DNA from: a virus
Lineage: Duplodnaviria; Heunggongvirae; Uroviricota; Caudoviricetes
IMG/VR virus record: IMGVR_UViG_3300029904_000001
Coordinates: 64,001-128,000 of that record
DNA length: 64,000 nt
Direction: 5' to 3' (one strand)
The notes beneath the pieces were generated by a model. The model was not told where the DNA came from. It searched no databases and was given only the letters and a program-made list of their open reading frames with translations. A program made the position numbers and the translations under genes. Shown here one piece after another: positions 19,293-47,100 of this stretch (position 1 is the first letter of the stretch; the number at the start of each line of letters is the position of its first letter).

Positions 19293-22266
19293 TACAATAA
19301 CGTTAGAAGAATTTAAAGATATTTGTAACTACTTGCTCGATAATAATAGGAGACTTGTAGATGAAGGTAAAAATCCGACTGCCGTTGGTGTAATAGGAGA
19401 AGCTGGATTAGGTAAAACCTCGGTTATACAGCAAATAGCTGAAGAAAGAGGTATGACGTTTGTTAAATTAAATCTTAGTGAGCTTGAAGAGGTCTCAGAT
19501 CTTACTGGTTTCCCCATTAAGGAGTATAAGCTTAGAGTAAAGAATTCTGAAGGCAAATTTGTTGATACCTGGGTTGCACATGACCTTTTAGACTTATATC
19601 TTCGTTCAGCTTGTGAGGATTTTGAGTTAACAGATCAAGTTAGAATGAGTTACGCTACTCCAGCTTGGCTTCCAAGAGAAGAAAATGAGAATGGTACTAT
19701 CCTGCTACTTGATGATTATTCGCGTAAAATTAAATAAAAATCTCAACAAAAATCATCAAGAAATATTTGTTTATTTTAAAATTTTGTGTATCTTTGCATA
19801 ATTAACCAAATAAAAATATTAATTATGTGAAAATTAACAAAAGAAAATTTAAAATTACCAGAAGTTAAAGGTAAATCTGGAGTTTATCGATTCTGGTGTA
19901 ATGATCATTCCTACATTGGAAGTGCAAAAGAATTTAAACATAGATTATCTACCCATATAAATACTATGAAGCGTGGTACACATCATAATCACACCGTTCA
20001 AAATGTATTTAATAAATATGGATTAGATTTATTTACGTTTGAAATTTTAGAATATTGTCCAATTGAAGATTTATTGGTTAGAGAAACATACTATATTAAA
20101 ACTCTCAAACCAGACATGAATCATATTTTAGATGCAGTAAGAATAGAACGAGATCAAGAGACTATCGAAAGAACAAGAATTTCACAATTAAAATATTATG
20201 AAACACATCGTCCAACTAATATTAAAAAGGTTTACCAGTACGATTTAGATGGAAATTATTTAAATGAATATGATTCAATTGTTGATGCTGCCAAATCTAT
20301 TGGAACTAATAAACACGGATCGATTTCACAATGTTGTAATGGAAAAACCAAAACGGCAAATGGATATCGATGGAGTTTTAAGAAATACTCACAATTGCCA
20401 AAATTAGTTAAAAATTGTAAATTTAAAACAATTTATCAATTGGATAGTAATAAAAAATTAGTTGGAATATGATACAAATTAACTGATATTGAACGTGATT
20501 TGCATATTATGCGAAATACAATAAAACTTTATTTAAATAAAGATGAATTATATAAAACTTGTTATTGGACAACTATTCCTCCAGAAGATTTAACTATCGA
20601 ACCAGGAATAAATCCGGTTTTAACTTTACCAGAATTCATCCCAAATTTAAAAGCTTCAGTAAAAGTTTATCAATATGATTTAGATGGAAACTATATCGCT
20701 GAATTTCCCTCTGCTGCAGAAGCAGATAGACAAATGGGAGCTACATCAATAGGAGCAGTTTCTAGTGCTGCTAGAGAGGATACAAATAATAAAACAGCGT
20801 TTGGATATCAATGAAGTTATAAAAAAGCAGATAAAATACCACCTTACGTTAATAATAGTTCAAAAGCAAAAATTGTATCTATTTATATATTTGATATTTT
20901 TAACAATAAACATCTTCAATTCGAAAGTATCGCAGAAGCTGTAAGAAATTTAACAAATAATGATAATTTTGACTCAGATTGTGCTACCATGTCTAGTTGT
21001 GCTAAATTAGGTGCGATATTCAAGTGCAAATATTTAGTTAGTTATTCGTCTGATTTCAAACTTCCAAAACGTAAAACAATTATTTATAATTCACTTCAAG
21101 ATACATTTTATTCTAATGCTAAAGTTGCAGCGGAACAAAACCATCTATCAGAATATAAAATTAAACAAAGTTGCATAGATCAAAATAATGTTGAGTGGGT
21201 CTATGTAGTCGATTGTGCGCGAAAAAAACTCAGTGAATCTGGAAAACTCCTTGAAGAAGGACAATCCTAATCCAAGCTTTGTAGAAATACAATGAAGGAT
21301 CAACGACTAGATAAAGTAATCTGACCGAGTGGTGTCGAAGATGAAATATCCACGAGTGCTGAGCAACAATTTATACTTACCGAAGTTAAACGATTGTTGA
21401 AGAGATAGTCTGAACTATATAGTAATATATAGAAGTATCAGATAAAGAACTGGTACGATAACAATACTAAAATGGCAAATTCTTTGTTTATGCAAGCTGT
21501 AATGGAACTCATCTATACAGGCAAATATATTAGTTGGAAATTACCTAAATATACTTCCGTGATGCTGAGTTCAAATCCTGATGACGGCTCATATCAAGTA
21601 AGTTCTCTTGATGCTGCACAAATGTCAAGAATGGTTAACTTTCCAATTAAATTTGATATTAAGGTTTGGGCCGCGTGGGGAGAAAAAGCACAATTAGATA
21701 ATAGGGCTCTAAATTTTGCTCTAATGTATTCTAATGAAATATTTGAACAAGAAAACAATCGCACAATTAATCCTCGTTCTTATACTACTTTCTGTAATGC
21801 TATTTCTGGATTAAAGGATTGGTCTAATACTAAGGATTTAGCAATGATATTAAATATAGCTAAAGGATGTTTTGATGATAAAGATAACATTGTTGGAAAT
21901 CTATTTACTATGTTTATAGCTAATAAATTGGATAAACTTATATCTCCAGAAAGATTGTTAACAGGTGATTGGAAAGAAGTAAGTGAAGAAATAAAACAAT
22001 GTGTGTATGATGAACATGGAAATTATCGTCCAGATATAGCAAGTGTTTTATCTACAAGACTTCTTAATTATACGAGTTATTATTTTGAGCAAAAAGGTTC
22101 TAAATCAGATTCAGTTCAAAAACGATTACTAGAAATTATCGATTCTCCAGAAATGCTATTTTCTGAAGATTTAATATATAATGTAATTAAACAACTTGCT
22201 ACTAATTATGCTAGTAGAATGAATAAAGTTATTATACATCCAAAAATTCGTAAAAAATTATTATAA
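19282..22266 (+). CDS. MoxR-like AAA+ ATPase (411 aa after splicing)
   Basis: Exons 19282-19725 and 21475-22266. Walker A GEAGLGKTS. Splicing joins Walker B LLLDDYSR to ANSLFMQAVMELI. Also SSNPDD and the Arg-finger SRM. Confidence 0.9.
19767..19797 (+). promoter_or_regulatory. Intron-internal Bacteroidota-type promoter for the GIY-YIG gene
   Basis: TTTG at 19767-19770, 19-nt spacer, TATCTTTG at 19790-19797. Confidence 0.7.
19825..21270 (+). CDS. Intron-encoded GIY-YIG homing endonuclease with NUMOD1-type repeats (481 aa with TGA=Trp)
   Basis: Begins ATG-TGA-AAA at 19825. Motifs SGVYRF..SYIGSA, and repeats VYQYDLDGNY. Three track ORFs share this frame. Confidence 0.87.
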
Positions 22267-23975: not shown

Positions 23976-24016
23976 AAGCCCTAGGTGTCGTAATGACGCT
24001 TAGGGCTTATTTTTTT
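23976..24016. terminator. Bidirectional intrinsic terminator at the strand convergence
   Basis: AAGCCCTAGGTGTC-GTAAT-GACGCTTAGGGCTT with a T run on the right and an A-rich run on the left. Confidence 0.85.
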
Positions 24017-27000
24017 AATTTTCTCAGGTTCTAACCATACCTTGAAATTCTCTTACGGCTCCAATATTACTTGTAACAGCTCTTGCTAAAGTCATATCAC
24101 CAGTAATCAATCCAATTGATGTATCAACTAATTTCTTCATTGAACTAATTAAAGGAGGATTAACATCAGAGAACATATCCATAACAATTTGAGTAAATGG
24201 ACCATCTTGAAATGCTCCCATTGCTACTTTGTATGATCATTGTGTTCACCAATTTTCATCTCTAATTTCTTGACGAGTTTTTGATTTACTTAGAATGTTT
24301 TCTTGACCAATCGCAGTAGAGAATAAAGCATTAATTATTAACATAATAATAGAAGCTAAAACCATATCGTTTAAAGCTAATATTAAGTTAGCTTTTTTCA
24401 TAGGGTCTTTAATTATCTCTCTAAGTTCTTGTCCATCCATATTTCTAATGGCTTTTGCAAATGACATAGTGGATTGTCACATACCTTCCATAGGAGCACC
24501 CTCTCATCTCATATAAGGTTCATAATTTCCAGATTTTTTATCTTCTTCTGTTAATTGTGATTCTCTTATAATGGTTCGAGTTGGGATTCCAATATTATTC
24601 CCATCTTTATAGTCAACTTTGATATAAAGTTTTTCTTTAGTTACAGGATCATATTGTTGTTTTAATAATTCCGTATTATATATACCAGGCTTCATTACCC
24701 ATTGCTCTAATTTTGCCGTAATGAATGTTTTATATTGCAAGAAAAAAGAACCTATAAAAGTATCATTAATCAATGCTCTAGATTCATCATCATAGTGTCC
24801 GTATAATAAGTCAGCAAAATTTTTAAATGTTTGTTGTTCTCTTGGTGGATAAGCTATTGGAAGATCATCTCCCTCTTGATATTGTGTGCCATCTTCTTTT
24901 GTATATCCAATACGATTATATTCACGAATGTAATTTAAATATAATGCACGTTGTTCAAAATATGCTGGGTCATCTGTCTTATTATTAACATATGCTTCAA
25001 ATCGTTTATCTTTTTTTCAATCATATTTTAACACTCCATCTTTATCTAAAGAATGTGCCTCTCACGATCCATCTTGCATCATTTTACCTACCAAAATAGA
25101 CATTCTATGTTGAAAATCAGGTGCAGAAGATGTTCAGAACAAAGTATCTGTACTTCAATTACGAATTCCAAATCTATTAATTTTTCTTTGTCTAGCTAAA
25201 TTAGATAAAGACATATTGGCCATACCATATTGAGTGTTTAATTGCTGTAATAGACTTACGGATGAAAAATTTTTATGTGCTTCTTTAATAACATGGCCAG
25301 CACCAGCTATATAGTGTTTTGCATCCAAGCCATCAATCAGTTTAACTCCAGAACGTGTAAATCCAATAAATGTACCTTGTAATAACTCTCTAAACATTGA
25401 ATTGAAGTTTAAACCAAGAGTCATCATAGAGAATCCTTTTTTAAGTAAATTTAAATATCTTCAAACAGCACGTAAATCTTCTTTCATGATAGGCTCTCCA
25501 TAAAACTTACTATCTAAGAATTTATCAAACGTTTCTAAGATTGCTTCATTCTTTTGTTTACCGTATTGTTGTGCATGTTGAAGTGATAAACGCATAGCTT
25601 GAAAAGTTGGAACATATTTTTTAGATAAATCTTCTTTAACATAAGCAGTTAATGCTTGATTAAATACTTCCTCAACATCCATACTAAAAAATCCAACACC
25701 GTGATCTTTTAATTTTTGAGCACGTGTATCGCTATCTAGTCGAAATTTATTATATACAGAATTAGCTTTTACTCTTTGAACAACTTTTGATATACCTTTT
25801 TTATCTTCATCTTCGGCAAACACTCCTTCGTGTAACGTTTGATATTCTTTTCATTTATTTTTAAACGCTTGTTTAACACTTAATCTACGAGCTTGTTGAC
25901 CAAATCTAGCTTCTGTTAAAGGAATTTCAAATAATGTTTCATCGTCGTTATCTCACATTTCTTGAATTGCTTCATCAGTAAAGCCTCGAAGTTTTGCCAT
26001 TACATTAATAAATTCTATAATAGCGGCTTTAGCTTTTGGTTGTGCATTAAATTCAGCAGAATATGGGTTTTTAATTAAAAATTTTGGATTTATTTCTCCA
26101 TTGGGTAAAGTTCTAAACCAAGATTCAAATAATTTATCATTTACTAAATGTGGATTTTTAGCTTGTTCTTCATCTATATAAGCTCTAACTAAACCTTGAA
26201 ATTTTTGTCCCATTATTTGAACTTTATTTCTTACTTCAGCTACGTATTGATCGTGTACTTGAGCTAAAATTCTAATATTTGCAGATGGAGAATACTGACC
26301 AGCTGATATTTGTAATCCACTAAGATTTATGTTAGAATTAGCAAATATCTCTCCTGGTGACATTTCATTTACTGTATATAATCCTTTAAGAGCCAATAGA
26401 GCTTTAGTTAAATACAAATAAGCTTGTCACACTGGAGAAGTTTCACTGAACATTTCTTCATTGTGTAATTCTGGATGCTTTGATTTTAGCTCTTTAATTT
26501 TATCAGAAATTCACTGTTCGTTATATCCAGCACTTTGAGCATTTGGAACTAATTGAAAATCAATTCAACCAGTATCAAGAGTTTCCATTTTAGAATAAGC
26601 AATACTAAGTAATCCTGTAACATCATCCCAAAATAAATCATCGTTTACTTGTTTTAAATCTAATTCAGGATTCTGCATTACTATCATATTTCAATTATGG
26701 ATAGCACTTGAATTTAACATTGAAACCATACGATTGTGATCAGATCAAGGATTTATAGCTCTGATTTCAGCAATACGAAACTGTTTAAACATATCTGAAT
26801 GCTCAGAAATATAATACATTGCTTTCATGATTTCAATGTTACCATAATTAGCATCGAAAATTTCTTTTGAATTGACGTTAGCGTTAGCTACTTTTTTACC
26901 TAATAAACTAGTGCCCATTCCAAGATTTAAAGTTTGTAACAACTGTTGATTTGTTAACATTAATATCTCAGAAACTCCATTACGTCTAAAGATAAAAAAT

Positions 27001-28607
27001 CCTAAAGAATTTAAATTATCATCTTGAATAAAATCCCAACCTTCATCAAAATACCGTTTTAATTCATGTGTAATAAAAGCTCTATTTTCTGCAGGAAACG
27101 AATCAGCAATATTTTCTCAATTTAATTCTTCTTTAAATACATCTCGAATATTATCTGCAAAAACACGTAATTCATTAGTACGAATATTATTTAAATCCTC
27201 AACGTATTTTTCAAGAGCTTGTTGTAACTCTTCTTCTGAACGAACATTAACCCATCTACGATTAGGTAAACCATTTGTTTTAAAACTATAACGATATCCT
27301 CCATTTTTTTCATTATATAAAGGACTATCTGGAGTTAATTTCTTTAATTGAATAACTTCTGGATGTTTCCTAAAATATTCTACTGAAGCCTCTCTTCTTT
27401 GTACATTACTTCTTAAATCAGAATTTGGAAATATTTCATTCATCTTTTCAACAGTTTTAATTGATTCTTCACTAGAAGATTCAATTTTAGCTGGAACCAT
27501 TGATATTCAATTATTATAATCACGTCCGTTTTTTGTTCCAGGAACATTATAAATAATAGGTGCTTGTGTAGCAGTAAAATCAAAAGTTTCTGTTCCGTCT
27601 GCTTGTTTAATTTTTCTAATACGTGATTTATCTACATTATCCCATTGTACGTCTAATTTAATTGGAATAATGTTACAAGATTTAGCCATTAATCCATACT
27701 GTCGTAATATAGCATTATAAGCTGCTAACTGATTGGTAGCTGAACGTTTCTTGGTTGAATGGACTAATTGATGTTTCTCACGTTCACGATTACTTTCTAT
27801 TATTCAATCTTCTCTTGTTCCAAAATTCTTTTTAGATACTTTATAATCAAATAAATGAATATCTCCAGACTGATCTACAATAATTAAATCGACTTTACCG
27901 TTTAAAGAATTGATACCAGCTTTTTCTAAAAGAACTTGAATTTCTGGTGCTAATTCTTTACTTTTAATCGCAAATTCTGTAAGAAACTTTGCGTTTTCTC
28001 CGTATTTTGCTTTAAATGTAGATTTTAAAGCTTGTGCTTGTACTGTAATGTTTTGAATTTGCTCACTAGATAAATATTTTAATTTAGGAATCTCTTTATC
28101 TGAAAAGACACACTCATATATTTTGTGGATATCTGTACCAAAATCTGTTAATTCAGGTCACAATTCTTCACTAAGTTCTGTTAATAATGCTTCGGCTTCA
28201 TCTGCTGTTTTTCCAACACGCATTAATTCTAATTTTTGCTTATTTTTCCATCCATTTAAATCAAATGGAGGACAAATAGGTTGAGATCAATCTCCAGCTA
28301 AACCATGTGTTGATATATATTTAGTAACACCCATTGAATTAGGGACTTTATATATAGTTTCTGATATTTCTGGATCTGAATCATCACGAAAAACTTCTAC
28401 TTGTACGTTTTCTACTGCAATTTTTGCTTCATTTAATTTTGCAATTGCTCCAGCCTGCATATCAACAGAAAGTGTTCTGTCTATTTTATCTATTTTGAAG
28501 TTATCTGTATTGGAGTTTAAGAAAGCATCCAAATCTTGTTCAGATTGGAATACTTTCTCTTCTCCATTTATATTTAATTTATATATACATCCTTTTCCTA
28601 ACCACAT
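24015..28607 (-). CDS. Large virion-associated protein with a RecB-like PD-(D/E)XK nuclease domain (~1530 aa with TGA=Trp)
   Basis: Ten track ORFs share one frame and end at TAA 24015-24017. Near 27700-28150: GTDIH...TEFAI...GKVDLIIVD...HLFDYK...NQLAAY. Confidence 0.8.
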
Positions 28608-28610
28608 AGT

Positions 28611-31600
28611 TTATGCTTTTGAACAATCTTCAGTTAAATTTTTATTTTTTACTAATATATCTTTAATAGTTGCTGCTTTTTGTGCTAATAAAATAAGATT
28701 TTTATCAATACTTTCTTTTCTATTGGCAGTAATAGTGTCCATTATTTCGCGTGTAATTTCCTGTATCGCTGTAGCAAATGTATAAGGTCCATTATTTACT
28801 TTATCTGTAAACTGTCTTACAAAATCATTTAAAGTAGCAACAATAGCTTGATTATCTAAACCTAAATCTATATCACTATATTGATATCCACGCATTTCCA
28901 TCTGCATTAGTTTTAACAACACCTCTTCTTGTAAATCCGAACCATGTTTATTTGGATAATAACTAGCAATTTCTTGGAATCTTGGACTTTCCATAACTGT
29001 ATTTAACATTTTATAATACTGTTCTGGAGTTCTCTGTTTAATAGTAGCTAATATACCATGACCGATTTCATGGAATAAATCAGTAGTATCTGCTTTAGCC
29101 ATATTAATATAAAATTCTCCATTTTCTATATAAGCAGATTCTTCTCCATTTGGATCATTAATTAAATGAAGATTGGTTAGATTATCATTAACATAATTTA
29201 CATAAGGCACTAATATATCAGCCGATGAAAAAATAGGTTGATAATAAGAATCAGTATCTACTGGTGTCTGAGTATCTACATCTTCTTTAACTACTATAAA
29301 GTTTCCATTTTCGTCAAATGGTAAATCAAAAGTGAAATACGCTGGATCATAAGTATAAGTATTAGGATCAGCTTTAATTTTTGAATTAGGTAGTTTAGAT
29401 AATCTATAATTAATATTTTGTAGGTTTATATTAATTTCACGTTTATTATTATCTAAATCTGCTATATACTGATAGAATCGATTTATTAAACTACTACTAT
29501 TTTTCGATAAAACTAAATTTTCAAACAATCTAGTAAACGAATCGTTTCCAAACGCATCTTTATTAACTATAAGATTATATAGATAAAATAAATCTGCGAT
29601 TTTTCATCCATTTATAGAATGATTTGCAATTGCATCAAAATCAGTTAATATGCCTTCATACATCGTTTGTGTTTGTTGTGATTCAGCAATATTCATCATT
29701 TGAAGAATCAATCTTCATTGAAATTTAGTTTTATTAGTTGCTTTATCTTCTTTTATAGCTCTTGTTAATGCCTGTACAAATTTATTACTATCTTTATATT
29801 TCGCAATAATCTCAGGAATAATTGATTCATCCATTAATTTTTTAAAATTCGCAATATTTATAACCGAATCAAGTTTTATTGGATCGGTAGTATCAGTAGC
29901 CTCAGCAAAATTATTAGGTGTGCTATTAATATATTTAAATCCTTTTGGAACTTGAATTTCTAATCCTAAAGACTTAATCCAATTAACAATAGTTTGATCG
30001 TATAGAGTATTACGAATAGTTTGAAACATTGTTTTATCGACACTTATATGTTTCTTAGGATTTTTAGCTTCATAATCCGCTTTTACACTTTTTATAATAT
30101 CTCTTTCTAATTCATAGATAAAACTAAATTGTTTAAGCATCGATTCTCCTAAACCAATTGTTCTAAACATCGCACTAAAATGAGGAACAGAATCGATAAC
30201 ATCTAAAATATTATATGTTACTTTGCCCGCGTTATATAACTCAATATAATCTTGTCTATATTTTGGATTAAAAGCAAATTGTTGTAAAGATATATAAGGA
30301 ACTTCATTAGGTATTTTGCCATTTATAAAATTTTCAATTCTATTAATATAAGCATAACGTTCTTGATCATTTGTTTTTTGACCTTGATTAATGCCTAACA
30401 TAGCACCTAAAGTTTCCATTTCTTTCATTGCTGGATAAATATTATCACGAATTTTTGTTAACATGATTAATTGTTGTTCATTGTTAGGTAAATTCTTTAA
30501 AAATATTCTTCTATCAGCAACTTTATGTAAATAGTTAATAACAGAATCTATTTCTGCCGATGTAGCAGGATTTAAAGCTAAATTTCTACCTTTAAATGCA
30601 GCTGGATTTTCTTGCATAGCTTGATTTACTTCATTAATAGCGTCACTTGAAACATGAACACCTTTTGCTCTCGCTATATATAATTTATCTAAAGCGGTAC
30701 GAAGATCTTGTTCATCTCTAATACGATCTTTTGCAAATCAAGCATTAGTTTCTGGAGATAATTTAAACTGATCTGCCAAAAGAGGGTTTTTATCTCGAAT
30801 ATTCTTTAAGATAATCGCTATTGATTTACTTGTATATTTAGCTTTATCATAATTTCTTGTTACTCGTTTTAAAGTATTTAAAATAATATCTGTCATTCCA
30901 GGAATTTGAGTTATTTGTTCTCAAGTATATTCTTTAACTGGAACAAATTCTTCAAATACTTTTTGATCAATGCCAGGAAATAAACTTTCATCAATATAAA
31001 AATCTAAGGCTGATTTTAAATCAAATCTTGATGTAGATTTATCAAAAATGTTTGTTTCAGTTAATTTAACTACTTCGTTAAATATTGGAGATTTCATTAT
31101 ATCAGCAATTTGTCCAAACGGAATTCCAATAGTTAATAAATAAGTATAAATATCAACAAACTTAGATGTAGCGTTGATTTTACTTAATATCAGCTCTTTA
31201 GCATTCGTGTGTGTTAACTTATACTCACGTATAAGATCAGACTATATCTTTGTGTATAATACACATTCGGTACTTCCGAAATATTCGTACTCCTTACGGA
31301 TAGTCGTTGCTCCTAGTTTATAAGTATATAAACTTTGGATCAGGATTGTCTCATTTGAGAGTTTCCCTGAGTTAGCCGATTATTTTATCCTACAGACTCT
31401 GCTAAAACATACGTCTAAAACATCAATTTAGAATCTGTAGCCGCCGATAACAAACTAGATAGCACTAAGGCACTATCTACTCGATTTGCTTTATCCTGTA
31501 GTATATGTAATAATGAAGATAAAGTAATAGGAGTAGCTCCTTTAGCTGGATCTCCAAATTGATCAGCAAACCGTGATTCAAATCTTACATTTAAACTATG

Positions 31601-34600
31601 TGGATTTATCTGGAAATTAGCTAAAACTGGATTACTATCAACTAAATCAATTAATTTTTCAAAATTTAAATTAGAATAACAAGTCAATGTGTCATCTAAT
31701 GGATTTATTATGAATAATTTATTTAAAGTATTATAGATAATATCAGAAGCAACTCTAACGTATTTTTCTTCAGGACTTCTAGTTAAGCCAGTTTCTTCAA
31801 TTTCTTCTAGACTTAATCCTTGTTTTAAAGTTTCATTAACATTTTCACTCGATTTTTCAATTTCTTCTGGCAACTTAGTTAAATCATTAGCGGCTTTATC
31901 TATAATATTATTATAATAAGTACTAACAGCAAAGAATGTTTTAAGTGATACTGCAGTAATACCAATAACTTGTTTACCTACCATATTTTGCACCTGCATC
32001 ATATACTTAACAAATGGATTGTCAGATGTAACATGTTTAACAGCTTCTCCAGCTTTCGAATCTTCTGCTGCTTTTTGAGGTTCATTCATATCTACAGGCA
32101 TGTGTAGATTTATTTGATTACGTGCATTTCTTGTTATATTTAATATATTATCAACTACTTTGTTTTGTAATGCTATTTCTCTTGTTCTTTGATTTTTTGA
32201 GTCGATATTAGTAAGAATGTTTCCACTATTACTAATGTTATAACTCATTATATATAATTTATCTATCATTTATGTTAACTATATATCGCTATATAGATCA
32301 GATTATCTCTTTGTGAATAATCACATTCTCCATTTCTTTTTATAATACTCCTTACGGATAATCGTTGAACCTTTCTTTAAAGATTTGGCTGCGGATTGTC
32401 TACTAGAGAGTTTCCCGCAATTAAGAGAATTTTACTACGACAAGATATTTATCGTAATCTGAGCCCTCTAGCCAAGTTTGAACGCGAGGAACGTATATAT
32501 CGTTTATTTTTGAGTTTGTTAGCATTACAACCTTCATAGGCATGTAAGATTGCATACCCTGAGTAGGAATACGTGCTCCAACTAAGTATAAAGATTTTTG
32601 GAAAGCATCAAATCGTTTTTTAGCTAAATGTTTGAATTTTCTTTGAAGTTGATACTCTTCTTCTTTAATAAACTTACGTTGATCTTGATTTTGGAGATTT
32701 ATATCATATTGGAAATTAGGATTTTGAACTAAACTATCTCTGTTTAATTCAGCTAATTTTCTCCAATTTTTACTTTGATAATTAGTTCTAGCTAATTCAA
32801 CTTGTTGATTATTAACTAATTCTTGAATTCTATCTAAAGTATTAACAGTAATTACGTGATGTCTATGTCCGGCATTATCTAAGAAACTATAAAAATTTTT
32901 GCCATCTGGTGATGTAAACTCTTCTCCTTTAAAATAAACTTTATTCTCGTTTATTTGGAAATCTTCGTTTTTAGAAAAACCTGCAACTTTAGCAAATTGT
33001 TGTTGAATTTCTTGTTCACTACCATATTTTACTAGTATTTGTTCTCCCTCGTCTGTATATAATACAACATCGTATAAATCAGAATTAACTTCTGGTAATT
33101 GATATTGCCAATTTAATTTGCTAATAAAAAATTCTTCACCTTTTGCTAATACATCAGAAATATTTTCATCATCTTCTAAACCAAACTTAGCAGCATCTTT
33201 ACGTCCAATTATAATTTCAGCTGGATCTACCGTATATTCATTAGTTTGAAATGTATCGTTTCCATCTCCAAACACATAAATATCTGAAATTGCTGTTTTA
33301 TTTTCAAGTGCTTTTAAAAATTCTTCAGTTCCTTTTCGAGCTGTTTTTAATAATTCTCCCTTTGAAACTTTATCAACATTGAATTTATCTATAACTTGAT
33401 TACGATAATTCATAATAAATGGAAGTATTTCTAAGTCAGATATTCCAAAAATATCTTTAGTAAGTTTTATAATCTCATCAGAAGGATTATTCTGTAAATA
33501 GTGAGATACTCTAACAGAGTTAATGTCATAAATACTATATCAGTCAGCTCCTACTTTAAAACGAGTATTTGATTGTTTAAGATTTTTGGGTTTAGTGGTT
33601 CAATTATAGAAAGTAAATCTATTACCATATTGTGTTAAAAAATTTTTTAGATAATCATATTTATCCCAAGAATCTATATATACGGTATGTAATTTTTTAG
33701 TTTCTGTATCAAACACAACAATGGTATCCTCAAAATCTGCTTGTCAAACAGTATTCAATCTATTTAAAAATGGGTTACGAACAACGTTTCCATTTGTATC
33801 CGGTAAAAAAGCTTTGTTGATAAAATCATCAATTTTAGCATTTATTCAAGGATTATTTGGCTGATTTAAACGTAAATCTTCTCTAACATTATATATACGT
33901 TTAGCTAAAGTATTATAATCCATTGTAGAATCTCCAATTCGATAATATTGTATATAGTTATACGAAGGATTTAATACTCCTGCAAAACCAGAATATTTAC
34001 GTCTAATTCCACTTTTATTTATTAAAGATATAATAGTAGCAATAAAAGCACCATTAATGGTAGGAGCACTAAATGGAATTCGATACTGTAAACTGTTATC
34101 TTGTAACGATTGATTTGCTTTCATTACAAAGGCTTGTGCTAATCCAATAGTATCCCGATCATTATTAATAAACGCATCAACAAGAGCTTGTCCTAAAAGT
34201 CGATAAAGTTTTACAGAATCTTTATCATTTATAGCATCGTAAAAATCTCCAAGTGCTTCAACAACTAATTTTCCGATATCATTATAAACGTTATTCACAA
34301 TACCTAAACTATATCCGTTTTGTACTAATGAACTTAACATCTGAGTCATTTCAGTAACTTCTGCTTCATCAATTTCATGATCTGCGTTCATTTGTACTCC
34401 TCCAAAAGCAGTAGACATAGTAATAGTATCTAAATTACTATCATCCATTCAATGCGAAGTATCATTAACGTTACCAGCTCCTACTTTAATTGCCGATTTA
34501 TTAACAGCATAAGCAATAAATTTATCTTTAAGATCTTCATCGGCAACAATATTCATTAATATATCTAAATTTGTTTCAGCATATACTAATTTTTGATTAG

Positions 34601-37600
34601 AATCAAGTTCAGCAGTATACGCTCCTCCAAATAGTTGGTCAATATCATATAAAGTGATATCTTCAGGTTTCTTAGTAATAACTTCTACTGGAATAACATT
34701 GTCAATATCTAAAATAGTTCCATTTCTGTCTGTAACTAACTCCATTCGAGTGTACGAAACAGTTCCATCAGAATTTTCTTTTTTTACAATACCTTGAATA
34801 TATCTCCAAGTTTGAGTTTCTTTATCAAAATAATATAAATCTTTATTTTTAGTATTAAAATAACGAACCAAATCTATTTTCTTACCAATAGGAATGTTGT
34901 GCATCTTTTTAAATAATTGTTCACCACTCATATTGGAAGTTTGAGACATTTGTCTACGAGCGTTAGTTAGTGCGTATACAGCCCATTTAAGAAGAGTTGG
35001 ACGACCATAAATAGCATCTACGTCTCCCATAATTGTTTTCTTATCGTAGCCAACATTAGCATCACATAAAGAAACATTCTCCATTCTGGCTTGTAATGGA
35101 CTAGAAATACCAGATCCATCCATAGAATCTAAATCTCGTTTTTCCTCTCCAATCATGTTTCAAACAGTAGCAGGAATATCTTTTAAGACAGCTATATTTA
35201 TAGTTTCTGCAACTCCATGTTTCATTCCTTGTAAAAATGGATGATACGTCGCTCCCATAATTACAGCACGCTTATTTTGAGCTATAAGACGATTGGCCTC
35301 GCTATATTCAAAATAATCGTCTTTATATAAACCGCCTTCTTTATTCTTATTTGGATGTGCGTATACTTCACCTAATGTTAGGGAATTATATTCATTAGAG
35401 AGTATAATATCAGATAAGAAATAAGCTTCTAATAATGGATTAAGTACAATTTCCATTTCTGGATCATTAGCTAAAAACTGCGCAATATTATATTTAGTAA
35501 TTTTTTCGCCTTTTTTGGTTTTAGCTAATATCATATCGCCAGAATTCTGATAAAATCAAGTACTGAAGTTAGAATTTCCAGATAATTGATAGGCACTATT
35601 ATTTCTAAACTTATTAAATGTAATATCGTTATCTAATAATTGTTGTAAAAAGATACGTTTTTGATTATTTAAACGTTTCTTAACTTTTTCAGGATTATTA
35701 AAGGTATTATATCAATTATAAATAGTTTCATTCATTAGTATTTTCTTAGATTTACCGTCTTTATAATAATGAATATTTTCGAATAAGTCAATGTGTGCGT
35801 CTTTAAAGGCTTTCTGAATATCTGCTTCAGAGAGTTGATTATTTACTATAAAAGAGTTAATACTATCTAAGGAAGTAAAAGTTTGACCAAAAGCATCACT
35901 TCAATCCTGTAAAATATTAGTAACTACTTTTTCCATTTTAGTAGCACGTAAAGTAGAATATACTCGAACTAAACCTGTATTATCACCATTATTTATACAG
36001 TTTTGAATTAATTCTTTTATATTTACTCACGTGCCATTAACATCCACATCATCCTTAATATTAAATGGAATAACATAATGAGTTCCTTTATCTGCAAAAG
36101 TTGTACTTTGAAATTCTACCTTATCTTTATCTATATTATTATAAAAATCACTAAAAATAGCAATATTCATCAATTCTGTAGTAGTTAAATCACTTGGAGA
36201 TTTAACTTCTCCTCCAATTTCAATATTAGATCTAATATAAGGTTGTCCAATCATTTCCCTATTTCTCACAATTAGATTATCCTCATACATATTATATCTT
36301 TCTTTACCAGTACGTTTTTGATGTTGATCAACAGCATCTTCGAGATGATTCATCATTGCTGGTACATTTTGAGCAAGACTAATTAGTTGAGTAGTAGGGA
36401 CGCTATTTCCTTCTAGATTCTTAATTACACTTATAGTATCCGAACCAAATAATACACTTAATGTATTAGCTATTCCATCTAAAGTTGTATGATAACTTTT
36501 AAAATCAAATAAACCGGATTTAGTTCATTCGTAATTTAGTTTAGAATTTATATTTCCAGCAGTTATAATCATTCCTAATACTGGAGCAAATGCCTTAAAA
36601 ATCGAAGTATTCTGAGAGTTAATTTGTTCTGATATACGTTGATAATCATCCGGTAATACATAAGAAACTAAATCTTGAATTATTTTTTTGGTAGTAGCTT
36701 CATCTAAATCATCGCTAGTACGAAAAGTGTATCTTCCATTGTTATATTCATAAGAAATAGTAGCTTCATCTCCTTCATCAGTTGTAAATGTTATTTTACC
36801 TTTACCATCATCAACGATATTATAATCAGTTAATAACTTCTTAAACTTATTTGGATCTTTTCTAAAAACTGCAATAGAAGATGCAATAACATCTTGTAAA
36901 CGATATTTTTGAATATTGACAAGACTATCCCGTAAATTCTTACCTTCAATTAAATTTGTAGTTGGATCTAATTGATACGAAACATAAGTAATAGGAACAT
37001 TTTTAAAAAACATTGCTGTAAACATGTCTTTTATATCTTGATCAATATCAGATTCATAAATATTCTTTTTAATTGAACGTAATTTAGAAATAAGATATGT
37101 CTTACGTCTATCGTTTACATTTGAAACATTACTTACTCAATCAATATATTGAGTTAACACATTAGACATATCCATCTGTGCTCCTTTCTTTAATTCTTTA
37201 GATAATGTTTGTAGTTCTGAAGGTGGATACATCAAAGTAGTCTTTAACGAAGCCATTGCTGAAGTAAAACCTTGTAATCCAATAGATGTATTAGGAATAG
37301 GTATATTACGAGCATCTAATTCAGGAAATATATCTAATAGAATATCTGCTAAATCAGAGGCTTGTTCAAATGCATCTGCATACTCACTAGATGAGAATTT
37401 ATAGAAATGTTCTACATTTGGTCCAGTATATTCATATTGATCAATGTGTTGATATTCTGAATCTTGATAATTACGTTTTGTTCTAATAAATGGAGTATTA
37501 CTTTTAATTAAATCATCAAATTTAGATAAAATCGAATATGTATCACGTAATGTATTCTTTTTATCTTCACTTGCGTTTTCATATAATAATTTAGCACTTT

Positions 37601-38105
37601 CAATTAGAGCACTAAATTCTTGTCCACTAATAGTATAATCTTTTGGAATTGAGTCTCCTTGAATTTCTAAATATATTTGATTTATAAGATCATATTTGTA
37701 CTTAGCGATATTCTTATTTAGATTATTTAGATTTGGAACATCACTAGGTCCATTAGCAGATACAAATCTTGTTTCTTTTAAATTATAAATAGATGATTCG
37801 ACAATTTTTTTAGCAAAAGTTCTACGTAAATTATTTAAATCTTGTGATTTACCTATATATAAACTAGTAAGAGAATCTTTATCAGATGATTCTATAGTTC
37901 TATTTAATGATTTTTCTTCTGGAGCTTTTGGTTGAGATTCTTTTTTGCCAGCTCCTAAATTGCTTTGAAATTCAGATATAACTTGATCCGCATTTTCAAA
38001 TTTTTGTTCTACAAAAGATTTAAAATCTTCTGGAGACAAAGATTGACTCAATGTCTCCAAAAGATATTTAAATTTATTTGAATATGTACATTTTTTAGCA
38101 CTCAT
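28611..38105 (-). CDS. crAss-type virion RNA polymerase (single chain, two-barrel) with a C-terminal zincin domain (~3027 aa after splicing)
   Basis: Exons 38105-32451, 32266-31433 and 31205-28611. Splicing restores GARIPTQ...WLEGSDYD-IDK and LSAATD-NAKELIL. DGSGISSP..EN.SL and KSAIKVG occur upstream. The C-terminal region contains FHEIGH. Confidence 0.92.
31206..31432 (-). ncRNA. ORF-less group I intron (227 nt) in the RNAP gene
   Basis: P1 is exon CTACAGAT paired with GTCTGTAG. P AACTCAGGGAAAC, Q AATCCTGATC, R GCAACGACTAT, S AAGATATAGTCT. Terminal G at 31206. Removal restores the reading frame. Confidence 0.92.
32267..32450 (-). ncRNA. Minimal ORF-less group I intron (184 nt) in the RNAP catalytic DxDxD motif
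   Basis: P1 is exon TACGAT paired with GTCGTA. P AATTGCGGGAAA, Q AATCCGCAGC, R GTTCAACGATTA, S AGAGATAATCT. P3 ATTCTC/GAGAAT. Terminal G at 32267. Confidence 0.92.
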
Positions 38106-41100
38106 AATTTTCTAAATTCTCATTTAATCTATCTTGCAAATGTTTAACTAAACGTTCTTTAAACCCATTAAAAATCTCCAGATTAATAACCATAGTTGAA
38201 ACAGCATTTTCTATACTTACATCAATATTATCATTATATAATTGGCCAATATAATTTAATAACGTTGTTTTAGCTGCGTTATCTAAATCAGCGTCTTTTA
38301 TAAATTGATACAACTCATTTCATGTTTGATAAGTATATGTTCTTTGAACTATAGCTCGATTGCCATCGTATTTATAAACTCAATACTCAGCATTATTAAT
38401 ATTTAATTCTTCAGTTTGCATACCATCTTCGTTTACTTTATCTGTAATCGCAAATATTGCAAATGGAACATCTTTAGATGCTTTAATATTAGTTAAAGGT
38501 ATTACGTGTGTAGGATCAACATCTATAATTTCATCTGTAAACATAGTATTTATAAAAGAATTAAATACACTTCTTCCATAGCGTTCTAGTTTTCCATCTT
38601 GTCCAATAATAGGATAGGTTTGAGAGGTTGTATGATTTTTAAATGTTTGATTAATTTTACTTATGGTATCATTTCATACTTCCTGTGTTCAAATATTTGG
38701 ATTAAGTAGAGTATCTAGATTATACGGATATTTTAAATCAGTTAAAGTCTGTTTTAAAGTATTAATTCTCTCGCTAAAATCATCAACTTCTTCTACTGGA
38801 TCACTATTTGGCTGAGATACTGTTTCAACAATAATTTTCGATTCATCTAATTGATAAATTGGAAAAGTTCAAGTATCAGCATCAGTTATATATCCTTCTT
38901 TATTACCTCTAAATTGACGATAAAATTTAGATCCACTATACCAATCTCCAGCTCTATCGTTTACAAATACTCCATATTTAAAAGCTTCTTCATCTTTTAA
39001 CAATTCATCAATGTTATTAATATTAGATACTCCTTTAAATATATCTGTAATTGTTTGATTAGCAGTATGAGTACTTAAACGTAAAGTATTATTGACTACA
39101 TAAGTATGTGTAAAATAAACTTTAGCTTCTGAAAAATCAATACCAGAACTACGCAAATCATTAAAAATGTTTGTTCCTTGTGGTTTAAATTCTTGTATTT
39201 TATTACCAATTGTGTATGTTTTTGTGTCAAAAGCAAACACTTCATAAACATTACTATCGGTATTAAACTGAATAAGTGCATCTAAAGTAGGACTTATTAA
39301 AAGTAATCCGTTTTTATTATTCTTTTTATCGGGTTTCTGTTTAACAAAATCCGATATATTACTATTTAATTCTTTACGTAAAGTTTCATCTTTAAAATCA
39401 CTTATTAAAATAGATTTGACTAATTCTCCCAATCTATCAGAAGGAATGATTTGTACGCTATAATCGTCAATATTTCTACGTCTCCAGAGAGCGTATTCGC
39501 CTTGTTGTGCTGGTTCAACAATATTTCCAAAAGCAGTAGGATCACCTAATAACTTGAAAACACTATTATCTTTAAGAATTCCATTAGAATCATATACTAA
39601 ACCTAAAGTTGCTAAGAATTCTGGAGTAAACTCTTTTCTAAGTTTACTCATTTTAGCTTGCATAGCAAAAGCAAAAGGAATTACGTTTGATAATTTATCT
39701 CGTTTATGGATACCTATTAACGGTATTTGCTCATGATGAGAATATGATCAATTAAACTTTACTTCATTACCCTCGTCATCTCTCTGTATATCTTCTTCTA
39801 TACCTTCACGCCAAAAAGATCTTAATTTCTGATCAGTATCAAGTTTATTTGAGGCAACCATTACCATCACCTTACCTTTATTAACAGCAACTAACGTTTT
39901 AGTTCTATCTGTATAATTAGGATCATTTTCTATATCAGGACGACCAACAATAGCTCAATCTTTACCAATATGTAAGGCTGGATACTTCTGTTGTAATTCA
40001 CTCAAACTTATTCAGTTACCAGATTTACTAAACGATAATCTTTGGACTTGAGTTAATTGACCAGTATATCTTCCAAATTTACCTTGAGTATCAACAAAAG
40101 ATATTGGAACAGTATATTTATTAGTAGGAGTTTCAATTACTAAAGATAATAAACCTTTACCATTATATGGCGTTACTTCCATATAAGTATTAGTGTCATT
40201 GTCCTTTAATATAGTAACTAATTTATTTATTTCCTCTTGTTCTTTGGGACTAGATCCACGGAATAAATCTCTAATAGCTTGATGATAGTTTTTTACATCT
40301 TCGTTATATTTAACAATCGATCCAAGTAATCAAACGAGATCTTTATAACGATCGGCTGTTATATTCTTATTAAACAAATTTAATAATGAATTTGGATTTC
40401 CGATTTCAAAATTAATAAAATTTTCTGAGAAAAGAAAATCATAATAATCATTATCATTTGTACTAAAAGAATAATCTTTAGATGTTTTAGATGTTTTTGG
40501 AGTATTGGTTTCTGGAACAGAGTTTATATGATCTCTTTTATATAATTCAACAAAATCATTTCATAAGAATCTGCCACTATTTTTTCAAGCTTTTGGTCTA
40601 TTAAAGAACGATGAATAAATATCGGTAGCTTGTTTTAAAATTTCCGATTCATGTTCTTTCCAATATTTTCCATCTTGATATTTAGAATTAGATTGTAATC
40701 ATTCTAATCACTTATTTTTTACTTGATCCTTTAGTTCAGCAATTTGCTCTTCCGCACTTTTAGTCGGTTTTAGTGATTCATATTTATTATTAACAACTGA
40801 TTGTAGTCGATTACGATAATCGTTTTTAAATTTATCGTCTATGTATTTAAATGCATTGAGATAATTATTTATCTTTTCAAAAACATCTCTAACCTGATTT
40901 GGATCGTAAGTAGTAATTTGATTAGTAAAAATATCTACATTAGTAGCCCAAGCATCTTCTAAAATCACTTGATCAAATTCTGCTTTTAATGGACGATTAA
41001 TCTTACTTATTTGTTTTTCAATATACTTTTGAGCTTCTTTAGATAATTCAGGATATTCGTCTAATTTTTTCCATAAACTATCTTTAAGATTTTTAACTAA

Positions 41101-44100
41101 ATCATCATATGAATGTTGGAAACTTTCAATAGGTAAACTTTTTGCATAATCATCAACTATTGGTTGTAATATACTATCTCAAACATTCTTTGCTTCATCT
41201 AAAGAAAGTTGTGGATTCACTGGCATATATTTAGCTTGAACCGCTCCTAATGCTTTAGCTATATCAGTTTTAAGATGCTTATAAACCTCTGTACTTAAAG
41301 GAAAATTAGCTTCAACAATCGATTCAATATCATACCATGTATTTGGATCTGATAAATTAATATTAGGATTATTTTCTAACGATTCTATAAACTTAGATAT
41401 AATATCATTTTTATGAAATAATGCTACACTTTCTGGACTATGAGTAAGCATTAAATTCATTCGTGCTTCTTCTCAAGCAGATTTTCCTGCAGTTTCCCAT
41501 GTTACTCCATCATAATTACTGTTAAATTTAATACGTAATTTATCTTCATGCTCTTTAGATAAATATTTAGCTCAGAAATTAGGATCGCTGAGTTCTGTGT
41601 CAGAATGTTTATTTTCTATGTTTCTAATAGTATTATCAATAAATTCTTGACGTTTACTATCAGTCCATTCTTGCGGAGTAATAGACAATTTTACTTTTGG
41701 AGCAGGAGGATTGCCTGGAGGAGGTGTATTATTGGAAGAATTATTCCCAGTTGGTATATTATTATTTGGATGAGGTGTATTACCAGAATTTGCATTATTA
41801 GCTACTTGTCTATGAGCATCATCAGCTGCAAAACTTTGATCAAAATGAGAACTTGGTTTTATATTTTTAAGACCTTGTAATCTTCATGTTTTAAATGTAT
41901 CAAATGATGTTTTAGACATATTAAGTGGAGCACCAGCATTAGCACTATTTTCTACATTTATATTTAAGTAATATGTTCCTCTTCCATCTTTAATTAAACC
42001 GTTATTTACAAAAACAGTAGCCATTTTAGAACGTTGACTAACTGTATAAAGATCTTGTAATAAAGTAAAATTATTTAAATCACCTCCAACAGTAGCTCGT
42101 TTCTTCCAATCTATATCTATAAAAGCATAATCATATTCTCCACCGTTAATATTATCAGCAGGTAATATTTCAACATTCTTTTTATCAGCAAACGTTGCGT
42201 ATTTACTTGGATTATCGGTATATATAGCGATAGTTCCATCTTTAAATCCTAACACTTTATTAATATCAACAATTAAAGCATCAGAATCTTTTACCATCTT
42301 ATCTCCAACTAAACGATTATTTCCATCATAATATTTAAGAGTAATTCCCGAAGATAAAGCCAATGTTGTAGCATTAGATATATCGGCAGAAGTCCATTCT
42401 GGATGATTTTGATACTCATCTAATACACTTGATAATTTAGTATCTAATATATAATAATTATCTAATTTGGCTACATTAGATGGACGTAAAGAAGCTGTTA
42501 AGAATGGAGATTTAATATGAAGTGTATCTTCTAAACCACTATAATCAGTAATAGTTCGAGTAGTGCCATCAACAGTTGTTTGATATGTTATTTTAGCAGA
42601 AGTTTGTTTTGGATCTCCTAATCCAATTATTCTAGCTCCAACTTTTTGTGCATATTGAGATAACAAATCTAATTGTACCGAATTTGCAACTGCAACCTCA
42701 TCAATAATAATATATTTATGTTTAGCTCCTTCTGTAAATAGCGGATCCAAATCTTTAATATTTATATCTTTTGGTCTAGCATAACGTAAACCTTTTGGAT
42801 AATAAATATTTCTAGCTTCTACACCATTAGGATTATCTGTTATCTCTTTAAAAACTTCATCAAGTGTTTTAGCCGTTGCTTTATCTAATCCTGTTTCTTT
42901 TTGAAGTTTATCTACTTGTTTTTGACTTGGAGCGAGCAATACTATTTCAGCAGCTGGATCATCAACCATTTTAGATATTAAACGAGCCATTACTACTGTT
43001 TTTCCAACTCCTGCTCCACCAAATATAAACGAAGTATTATACAGAGGTGTTTTATTTTTTATTACATCCGGTAGATCTTCAATTGATTTTAATTTATCTA
43101 ATAATTTATTAAATTTAACTGGATGTAAAGCAGCAGCAACACTTATACGTACATCGAACTCTTGTCCATATAAAGGAGCTACATTAAAATCTGGAGATTC
43201 AATAATACTTTTTAGTTTAACGTAATAATCGTTAGAATCTAATGATATTAATGTAGTTAAATATACAGCTAAATCATAAGAAGATAATTTTTCATCTTTA
43301 TTATCAGTTAACTTACTAGATACCATTTTCGCAGTATCAATAGTTAACAACTTATCATAAAGTGTATCTAATTGATCTTCTGTAAGATTATGTAATTTAT
43401 CATAAACAAGAGATTCAAATTTAATAAAGGTTTCTTCTTTATCGGTGTAATTCGATTCGTTAATATCATTCCAATCCCAAGAATCGGGTTTAACGTTATC
43501 TTCAAATTCTTGTACTAAATCAATTCCCGTTGCTTCTTTAATAACGTCTGAATAGAGTGGATCTAAAAGTGTTTTAACAAATTTAGGACGCATATTAGCT
43601 GCTATTTTCTTTTGAATCGTAAATTTATTTTGTCCATTATTTTTACTAATTTGCAATAATGTTATTATACGATTCTTAAGTGCTAATATTTCATCTCCAA
43701 TTAGTTTAGCGGAATGATCAGATAAAATTCCAAGAGTTGGTTTTTGTAATTGTTTACGATACTTATTAGCTGTTGCATTTAAACCATCGTAGGCTCCAGA
43801 AATCATTCCTGTAAAGATATCTAATAATTGTTGTGCATTTTCTAATTGTTGTACGACAAGAGGATTTTCGATAGTATAATCTTGTAAAGATTGTACGCTT
43901 CCTAAACGCAATTCTTCACTTTTAACTAAATCTAATATTGGCATTTTTTCTCCAGTAAGTTCTACGGTTAGTTGATTAAATAAATCACTAAATGGAGAAT
44001 ATAATACATCTTTACGCATATCATCCATTTCTTTCATAAAATCAACAATAGATTGTGTTCCTACTACTGGTGTAAGATGGTCTATTAAAGCTTTAATATC

Positions 44101-47100
44101 AGCTTCTTCAAGATTTGTTTGTTCTTTAAGAAAATTATTTAACTCTTCATAAATTTCTAATGCACGTTTATTATCTTTACCAAATAGATTTATAAATTCA
44201 TCAAACTTAGCTGCAAATTCTTTTTGAATATCTGAAGTATCATCATATCGAAATATATCGCGAGAGGCATCTCCGGTTTTACTTATCCTTTGAGTAATAG
44301 CATCATCATCGTATCCAAATTCAGGTTGGTTTGCTCTTCAGTTTTGTCCATATTGAAATAATTGATCAAGTATTAATCCACGTTTTTTATAATCTTCTCT
44401 AACTCAGTCATAAAATCTATCTAATTCAGCATCATTAAATAAAAGAGTTTGAGATTTCTTGTATTCGTTATAAATATTTTTAATTGTATTTGCAACTAAA
44501 GCTATATCTTCAGATTGATCGTCTAAAATACGTTGTAATTTCTCAATTTCTGAATTAGGAGCACCTAAAAACTCTAAAAATAAACCTGGATTTTGATCGT
44601 ACTTTTCAATTTGAGTTTTAAGTTTCGCAACTTCTGTTTCTAAATCTAACAATTTTTGCTGTTCTTCATTAGTACGTTCAGACTCCGGTTTGCTATTTAA
44701 CTTATTTATCTCATCAACAATTTTATTACGTTCTTTAACTAAATCGTCTCTCTTTTTACTGTATAGTTCTTTACTATATTGTGTATTACGTTTTTTATTT
44801 TGGAGAATTTGATCTAGTTGATTAATTTGAGGAGCATATCGTTCAGATAATTTATCATAAGCATTAAAAGCAATATCTCATAAATATTGCCCTTTTTCAG
44901 CCATAAAATCATTATATTCTTCATCAATTTGAGCTTTCTGATCATCCTTTAAAGAAGAATAATTAATACCATGATATGTTTGAGCAAACGATTCTTTAGA
45001 TATATTTCCAAATAAGGAAGAAGTTGCTCCATCCAATCTAAATAAACCTCTTTCGACATAATAATCGTTACGTTCTCCATTTAAAATAGCATCACGTTCA
45101 GTACGAAGTTTTAATAATTGATCTTGTAGTTTTTTAATTTGGAGATTATTATTTAACTTTTCCTGTACTTCAGCTTGAGCTTCTTTAGAATCATTTTGAG
45201 CTGAAGAACGAATTGATTCTGTTAGTCTTTGTAATTCAGCACGAGTTTTAATTAATTTAGCTCCTAATCTAGAGAAATCGCGTAACATTCCTCCTTGTGC
45301 AGCAATTTGATTAACAATACTTGCTCTTACAAAAGGATCGTCTAATTTATCAGTATCAATTTGTAATAATTTTGGAAGTTTTTTAGAGAAATCCGTTAAA
45401 CCTTCCTCATTAATAAGATTTTCAAGATAATTAAGATGATTAGTAACAGCTCTATAAACTGCATCATTTTGAGTATATTTAGAATCAACATTAGCAGTCC
45501 ATTCTCCTTCTTTACCTGGAAGTTTTAATGTACTACCTTTATCTGCTGACAAATTGGTACTTCCTAATCTACCTTGTTGATACCATTTATCATAATAAGA
45601 TTGTATTTCATTTTTACGACCATTTGCTATAAAATAGGTCATTTTTTCTAAATCATCTAAATTATCTCAAGCTGCAGCAGCTGATTCTGGATGTAAAAAT
45701 TTCTCTCATTTGCCAAAACCTTGAAAAATAGCTCCACCAATAACACCACCTCCAAAAGTCATTGCATAACGAGATAAAATTTCATTCCAAGAATATCCAA
45801 AATCTAAATCTTGATCTCCAGTATTAATACCAAGGGCTTCTAAACCAAGAGTGAAAACTTTAGATAAATCAGAAATATTCTCTTCCATTATCTCTTCTAC
45901 ACCTTCTGCAATAGAACGTTGTCTAAACTCACTACTTTTAACAGTATTTTTAATTCCATCTTTTAAACTCTTAGAAAATTTTTCTGTAAGAGATTTAAAT
46001 AATTTCTTTGAACCAGCTTGAGTACCATCTTCAGCTGCTTGTTGAGCTGTTTGTTGAACAGTTTGTTTAGTAGCTTGTTCTGTACCCTCTTTAACTACAC
46101 CCGTTAATTCATCACGATACATTTTAGCAACATTTAAAGATGGGGTTTTAACAACACTATCGTCAAGATAAGAACCTCGGAAAATACTCTTTCTAAAATA
46201 ATCGATATTCATTAACTTTCAAAGAGCAAAAATATTAGCAGCCATAGCAATACCTGCAGTCCTATCATTAGCTCCAGCTTCTTTAAATGCTTGATATGTT
46301 TCTCTAGCTGACGTCGCAGCCATATAAGCTTGAGCTAAATTTTGTCCGGCTCTAGTATTAGTTGTAATATTTCCATATTTATTTAAAAGTCTTGGAATAG
46401 CTCCTACCACACGTTGTTCAAACAATTGTCCTCCAATAGCATTAATCATGGAACCTAAATTCTCAACAGAAAACATTTTTTGTCTTCCTGCATCACTAAC
46501 ACTAGAATTAAATCTAGAAGTTCAAGATTCTAATCTATTTAAAGTAGAATCAATTTCTGTTTCTTTGTCTCCAGAAATGATGGAATCAAGTGTTTTTCCT
46601 AAAATTGGAAGTATTTGAGCAGTTGCTATACTAGCTCTAATAGCTCCATAAACAGGACCGACTCCAGGTATAAGTAAAGGTCCCATTGTAAGAGCGGTTT
46701 TCATTAAAGTACCGCCGATAGATTTAGTTAATCCATCGTTATCAAAAACATCGATGGCATTGAGACCCTTTCCATCTATAGTTAAAGTATCAGTATAATG
46801 AAGTAAATCTTTTCCATACATTTCACGATCTCCAAGTAACTCATAATATGGACGTCCGTCTTCGTTATATTTTAAATCTCCCTTTTTATGAGAAACGATT
46901 TTACCATCCACTTCATGAGTTCCATCTTCATCATATTGAGCTAAAACTAGAGTTGGCCTAAATAATCCTTTAAATAGACCTCCTTTATCATTTGGAGACC
47001 AATCTAATTCATTTCCATTCTCATCATGTACTTTTTCTCTTTGAGCAATTTCACGAACGCTATATTGGCTTGGACCGTTATACAAAATACCTTTTATTCC

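Follow-up and report, generated by a model that had tools for sequence, protein, structure and literature searches.

A 184-nucleotide ORF-less group I intron inside the catalytic DxDxD motif of a crAss-like phage virion RNA polymerase gene

In a crAss-like gut phage, the virion RNA polymerase gene is split within its catalytic DxDxD motif by a 184-nt group I intron. This intron, here called intron A, sits on the minus strand of the window, the stretch of 64,000 nucleotides that we analyzed; the source record is a complete genome of 176,910 bp with terminal repeats. We put at roughly 85% the probability that intron A functions as a group I intron and that the polymerase is restored once it is removed; its catalytic steps, its splicing in vivo and its independence of protein are what we infer from the evidence below. 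Read from its sequence, the element is best explained as a phage IA-type intron that has no ORF, in a crAss-like phage of the Zeta group that decodes TGA as tryptophan.

The interrupted polymerase gene

The polymerase gene is divided into three exons by two introns:

32451..38105, minus strand: exon 1 of the virion RNA polymerase, 1885 amino acids (TGA read as Trp), ending ...QTWLEGSDYD
32267..32450, minus strand: intron A, ORF-less group I intron of 184 nt (Rfam, drawn pairs, independent assemblies)
31433..32266, minus strand: exon 2, 278 amino acids, IDKLYIMS...LLSAATD (consensus of intron-less homologues)
31206..31432, minus strand: intron B, group I, 227 nt, P2 and P7.2 present, junction SAATD/NAKELIL
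28611..31205, minus strand: exon 3, 864 amino acids (reading frame, homologues)

Exon 1 ends with ...GAG GGC TCA GAT TAC GAT at 32451, giving the C-terminal reading ...VPRVQTWLEGSDYD, and exon 2 starts with ATA GAT AAA at 32266, its opening residues being IDKLYIMSYNISNSG...; the last base of intron A is the G at 32267. Reading TGA as Trp opens the polymerase frames. When the frame of exon 1 is read on (protein P0005), it reaches a stop nine codons into the intron, so that a full-length polymerase depends on intron removal, as the original prediction held. Excision of intron A joins ...EGSDYD to IDKLYIMS...; ligation of the exons would join GAUUACGAU to AUAGAUAAA, with ...WLEGSDYDIDKLYIMSYNISNSGNILTNIDSK as the predicted junction-spanning stretch of the spliced polymerase. 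With introns A and B both out, the product has ~3027 amino acids, a length within the 2895-3264 of its homologues.

Searching with the last 486 amino acids of exon 1 returned 55 homologue clusters. In 33 of these, all without an intron, the motif GSD[YFLM]D[IA]DK is uninterrupted, and the products have 2822-3264 amino acids, with one exception of 2363. A stop falls inside the motif in 21 clusters, the window's own counted, and one cluster is ambiguous. The spliced GSDYD/IDKLYIMS corresponds to the continuous sequence of the 33 intron-less clusters, and the predicted GSDYD/IDK junction proved exact. One homologue, P0010, with 44% identity across the 486 query residues, has GSDYDIDKLYVMS / WLQGSDYDIDKLYVMSFS at the motif without a break.

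A 91-column profile of the motif region (A7) matched a single PDB entry, 6VR4_A (E 3.4e-7, residues 1328-1386), the solved DNA-dependent RNA polymerase from virions of Cellulophaga phage phi14:2 (gp66 type); the matched part is the beta-prime-like barrel segment with the DxDxD metal-binding motif. The alignment pairs ...GARIPTQ...GSDyDiDKlY with ...GYRIPNQ...GSDFDIDKMY, setting the DYDID of the window on the DFDID of 6VR4. In a large library, the same profile found 2768 proteins at E ≤ 0.001. Pfam and PHROGs gave no matches to the exon products, and no polymerase match came from comparing exon 1 (phmmer) and a 737-position profile with the PDB. Foldseek found nothing significant in the PDB for an AlphaFold2 model of the 411-aa motif segment of P0010, whose motif was of low quality (pLDDT ~50) and which we weigh neither for nor against the fold with two double-psi beta-barrels of this polymerase type. 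Megablast of the region against GenBank phages returned no match. The phi14:2 polymerase is packaged in the virion and transcribes early genes (cited in PMC7886860); by homology, the polymerase described here would also be packaged and transcribe early genes.

On either side of the polymerase gene lies a further giant ORF, 38095-47466 (minus strand, 3123 amino acids) and 24015-28607 (minus strand, 1530 amino acids), both lengths with TGA read as Trp. The products of the upstream giant ORF in contigs L007, L008 and L069 have AAA_19/AAA_30 helicase-type matches. This neighborhood agrees with the "transcription gene block" known from crAss-like phages.

In a 3-kb scan, the Rfam model RF00028 (Intron_gpI) matched 32460..32279 on the minus strand with 68 bits (gathering score 50, E 1.9e-16), and the alignment spanned the full model (1-253) with P2 deleted. 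Together with the profile match to 6VR4, this bears out the original prediction that 32267-32450 is a 184-nt group I intron in the DxDxD motif. Rfam scans of the full 64,000 nt gave no matches, intron A included, whether cut at the gathering threshold or at E ≤ 0.01, and an RF00028 search of the whole genome missed introns A and B, because of speed filters; both were found in 3-kb scans (intron B at 31431..31218, minus strand, 73 bits). The silence of the whole-window scans on intron A is a filter effect and no evidence against the intron.

Sequencing data bear on the boundaries and on persistence. A contig from RNA run X3 covers 32134-32266 and continues directly with 18 bases that correspond to 32451-32468, with one synonymous change, as predicted for the junction. 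This contig, the sole record across the junction, has a depth of 2, an 18-base short side and an origin in a strain ~3% different, and its library may contain DNA. It may represent an intron-less allele rather than spliced RNA; under either origin it shows where the element begins and ends. Depth over 32306-32453 is close to nil in RNA runs X1-X3, which we did not count as splicing evidence. A relative in X1 carries a 1503-nt insert at the intron A site, and a relative in X2 carries an intron 9 nt upstream of it. The identical 184 nt with their flanks occur in two separate assemblies, L069 (a 174-kb contig) and L070, and the truncated polymerase protein was found on six contigs.

Fold of intron A and its proposed splicing

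The splice-site pairings and core helices of intron A are as follows:

32434..32456, minus strand: P1, 8 bp, and P10 guide (sequence, Rfam alignment, script)
32260..32264, minus strand: P10 partner AGAUA, 3′ exon +3 to +7 (sequence)
32325..32430, minus strand: P3, 7 bp, 32430..32424 with 32331..32325, enclosing P4, P5 and P6
32419..32414 and 32395..32390, minus strand: P4, inside P3
32409..32407 and 32401..32399, minus strand: P5, 3 bp, inside P3
32389..32387 and 32371..32369, minus strand: P6, inside P3
32300..32365, minus strand: P7, A32365 plus GAUUA 32363..32359 with UAAUCU 32305..32300, C32364 bulged
32358..32349, minus strand: P7.1 hairpin, UCC-GUAA-GGA
32313..32324, minus strand: P8, GUGA-UUAU-UCAC, 4 bp
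32296..32279, minus strand: P9, 7 bp, GCGA loop, part of 32267..32296
Following P9, minus strand: 12-nt 3′ tail UUAACAUAAAUG, ending in the terminal G 32267

P1 pairs the terminal exon bases with intron nucleotides 10-17 (32441..32434) over 8 bp and places the wobble U32451.G32441 (U(-1).G10) at the 5′ splice site. The P10 guide UAUCU (intron nucleotides 4-8, 32447..32443) forms, as read from the sequence, a 5-bp helix with its 3′ exon partner (UAUCU/AGAUA). All 39 of the drawn pairs in P3-P9 are standard. Thus the U-G pair of P1, the TATCT/AGATA pairing of P10, the core helices P3-P9 and the absence of P2, which is deleted in the Rfam alignment, stand as first proposed. The helices listed in that proposal were all recovered; the 3-bp P5 and the absence of P7.2 had been overlooked.

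Two peripheral elements, P2 and P7.2, are missing. In subgroup IA2, both P7.1 and P7.2 lie between P7 and the 3′ strand of P3; intron A has P7.1, and an 11-nt A-rich linker replaces P7.2, which is present in intron B and most relatives. P5 (3 bp) and P8 (4 bp) are minimal. Two conserved GNRA loops are kept, GUAA in L7.1 and GCGA in L9. Intron B and the introns of L005, L065 and L058 have 3′ tails of a like kind. The pair G32363-C32301 lies next to the bulged C32364, a layout conserved in the family, and we take this pair to be the guanosine-binding site, by analogy with G264-C311 of Tetrahymena.

We built a covariance model (R1) from four introns of this phage, and its search yielded 89 matches in 68 loci. 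The dot-bracket of R1 cross-paired the strands of P3 and P7 (28-60% pairing there) and still worked as a search model; the pair counts cited here use the corrected structure on the alignment fitted to R1, which probably lowered the P3 figure of 65%. With the correct P3/P7 pseudoknot, 89.6% of cells pair across the 89 family matches, and in 34 of the 39 pairs both partners vary. None of 500 shuffles reached any of five pairing measures, and slid controls fell to 32-46%. The MFE z-score of the intron A fold is -2.5.

The P7 and J8/7 sequences of intron A depart from the family consensus. P7 is GAUUA/UAAUC, whereas the other introns of the window have GACUA/UAGUC. The third pair is U-A in intron A, whereas all 63 family members in which it is paired have C-G; the change is a true double (compensatory) one that keeps the helix, in agreement with what had been proposed for this pair. 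The altered C-G pair and the existence of strains lacking an intron weigh against the functional reading. Both the departures in P7 and J8/7 and the coexistence in samples of strains with and without introns would also fit a decayed, splicing-dead relic, in a lineage that gets no full-length polymerase out of this gene and relies on co-infecting intron-less strains or uses the two polymerase halves as subunits. We consider such a relic very improbable. The P7 change keeps its pair, 39 of 39 pairs are intact, and the same sequence occurs in the complete 176,910-bp genome and in six contigs. As for separate halves, a cut between the second and third Asp would break the metal-binding triad, which is contiguous in the 33 uninterrupted clusters and in 6VR4.

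A model for splicing of a functional intron A is that the transcript would fold into the P3-P9 core and that a guanosine at the G-C pair of P7 would attack after U32451, held by the U.G wobble of P1. The freed exon end would then attack after the terminal G 32267, with the 3′ exon aligned by P10, and ligation would restore the catalytic DYDID motif. Intron B would also have to be removed to give the ~3027-aa enzyme.

With P2 and P7.2 missing and P5 and P8 minimal, intron A may fold poorly without help. A real intron that is spliced in vivo might depend on protein for folding at cellular Mg2+ after the loss of P2 and P7.2, the helper being the LAGLIDADG maturase of another phage intron or a host RNA chaperone. 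This would refine, rather than exclude, the reading of intron A as a functional group I intron, and we think it rather unlikely. The missing peripheral helices, the very short P5 and P8 and a z-score of only -2.5 favor such dependence, as do the further group I introns of the genome (seven matches at E ≤ 0.01) and the LAGLIDADG genes in relatives' introns at the same site. However, the core is complete, the GUAA of L7.1 and the GCGA of L9 could make tertiary contacts, and the small Azoarcus intron (205 nt) is known to be very stable. The small introns of Jug phages are spliced in vivo, in a report that is silent on protein help (PMC12880540).

An insertion hot spot and the origin of intron A

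Judged from their protein tails, the interrupted clusters (21/55) fall into four groups at neighboring codon boundaries: 16 break after GSDY or GSDF, two after GS, two after GSDYD and one after GSD. At the DNA level, three of these four sites are confirmed, namely GS/DYDIDK in L006, GSDY/DIDK in L001, L007 and L008, and GSDYD/IDK in L005 and the window. LAGLIDADG endonuclease genes are present in most of the interrupted relatives checked (by Pfam; in L001 by sequence reading). Where the DNA was read, the interrupting intron carries an ORF in four relatives and none in the window phage. These comparisons show introns repeatedly targeting the DNA for the catalytic triad, a hot spot hit in multiple lineages, which the original prediction had overlooked. 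In L007 (9715-9744) and L008 (9740-9769), the GSDY/DIDK introns end ~17 nt past the second half of P7 and seem to lack a P9 hairpin.

The intron of L005, a related Zeta phage (cluster P0025, 1630 members), has the same insertion point as intron A (GSDYD/ID). The two are 86% identical over the first 64 aligned bases; their P3′ strands are the same, and their 3′ tails are alike. They differ in length, the L005 intron having ~0.9 kb and intron A 184 nt. After the 5′ strand of P7, where intron A has the P7.1 hairpin and the A-rich linker, the L005 intron has a 245-aa LAGLIDADG ORF; it also has a GACUA/UAGUC P7 and a longer P8. Most simply, intron A would be the ORF-less form of the L005 lineage. 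Since a relative has a homologous ORF-bearing intron at the same site, intron A most likely belongs to a mobile lineage that targets this conserved stretch and has lost its LAGLIDADG gene, loss being the direction that we infer.

Translational hopping, editing or another bypass without RNA splicing would be a further way to express the interrupted gene; a possibility of this kind was raised by Yutin et al. 2021 for breaks within the DxDxD motif of Zeta-group polymerase genes (PMC7886860). For intron A we find this barely credible, as a group I intron already explains the site and an extra mechanism is unneeded. Against it stand the full-model group I match with correct splice-site signatures and the group I cores or LAGLIDADG intron ORFs that other interrupted relatives show at this site.

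Beyond the reading of intron A as a functional intron, a stronger proposal is that it is a self-sufficient 184-nt ribozyme without P2 and P7.2, its IA-type minimal core being, like the 181-183-nt candidates described below, smaller than the Azoarcus intron, and that the 12-nt DxDxD stretch is a homing hot spot invaded at four positions by several independent lineages. We hold this proposal tentatively, at somewhat less than even odds.

Intron A is one of several introns in this phage. Contigs from RNA run X1 and from run X5 (library type not on record) lack intron B exactly at SAATD/NAKELIL, and intron B is therefore polymorphic among strains. A third group I intron lies at 21193-21432 (plus strand; 64 bits with Rfam in the genome search, 48 bits with R1), between ORFs 20989-21270 and 21472-22266, in a host gene without a Pfam match. 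The 3′ part of a fourth lies at 18261-18327 (plus strand), with a partial Rfam match at 18272-18325, and a P4/P5-like motif occurs at 17318-17345 (plus strand); the region ~17318-18327 (plus strand) is probably an ORF-bearing group I intron of ~1 kb. The next ORF, 18345-19073, encodes a VWA-like DUF2201 domain. The RF00028 search of the genome gave seven matches at E ≤ 0.01, three of them above the cut-off. Five matches fall outside the window, at these positions of the genome (G000):

141721-141949: 78 bits
162230-162443: 65.5 bits
141187-141451: 47 bits
139045-139156: 31 bits
140490-140522: 22 bits

In total, the phage has at least nine group I introns or intron parts, including the four of the window. 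Family cores are extremely dense in some other gut-phage contigs, with seven within 5 kb in L058 (900-5720; IMGVR_UViG_3300045988_048611) and six within 10 kb in L011 (1279-10842), where TAG is apparently read as Gln.

Comparison with known introns and polymerases

Phage introns of subgroup IA2 include those of T4 td, nrdB and sunY and of Staphylococcus phage Twort orf142 and nrdE. These introns, with lengths of roughly 250-1000 nt, have P2 and P7.2, and most of them have P9 extensions. They share with intron A the core motifs CAACGACUA...GAUAUAGUC, the P7.1 helix and a location in conserved parts of essential phage genes. Unlike them, intron A, a putative IA-type intron, has neither P2 nor P7.2. 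Its compact IA-type core makes it a reasonable candidate for a minimal ribozyme.

We found no paper devoted to the smallest group I intron. The intron of the Azoarcus sp. BH72 pre-tRNA-Ile, an IC3 intron of 205 nt, is proven to self-splice (PMC3895272). It is natural and, like intron A, very compact, its periphery limited to tetraloop contacts; it differs in belonging to another subgroup, in its location in a tRNA anticodon loop and in having P2, and intron A is 21 nt shorter. In the Jug jumbo gut phages, 2513 group I introns have a mean length of ~206 nt, and metatranscriptome reads bear out splicing in 37 cases out of 76 (PMC12880540). As described there and in its preprint (PMC12363816), these introns resemble intron A in being ORF-less, ~200 nt long and located in genes essential to gut phages; covariance models were used to find them, and the phages are predicted to infect Bacteroides or Phocaeicola. 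The Jug phages are jumbo phages rather than crAss-like ones, and the genes named in the part of the report drawn on here are terL, nrdD and DNA polymerase, with no mention of the crAss-type polymerase.

Two still shorter candidates, both unvalidated and both in the IMG/VR contig L011, are a 181-nt intron at 10670-10850, in a tape-measure-like gene, and a 183-nt intron at 5697-5879; our splice-site script gave several solutions for most other family loci, and we report these two only. The original prediction had suggested that intron A may be among the smallest natural group I ribozymes. It is indeed below the 205-nt Azoarcus benchmark, yet it is not uniquely small and sets no record: its novelty in size is weakened because introns with a mean of ~206 nt are published for Jug phages and because of the 181- and 183-nt candidates.

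The closest precedent for the interruption itself comes from crAss-like phages. Yutin et al. 2021, who detected introns through endonuclease domains, described Zeta-group polymerase ORFs that break within the DxDxD motif and proposed "additional, yet unknown expression mechanisms" for this disruption (PMC7886860). A 2023 review repeats the view of an unknown mechanism (PMC10136315), and a 2025 paper on Zeta phages does not address the DxDxD disruption. The ORF-less form of the intron escapes screens for endonuclease domains and is lost to the filters of whole-genome Rfam scans; in AT-rich phage genomes, such introns will be undercounted by routine annotation. Recurrent targeting of the DNA for a catalytic triad should be useful both for annotating abundant gut phages and for studying intron homing. 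In the window, the gene, the phage group and the break inside DxDxD are the same as in the disruptions of the 2021 study and the review, and the break is a group I intron, which gives this crAss-like puzzle an ordinary explanation at this site.
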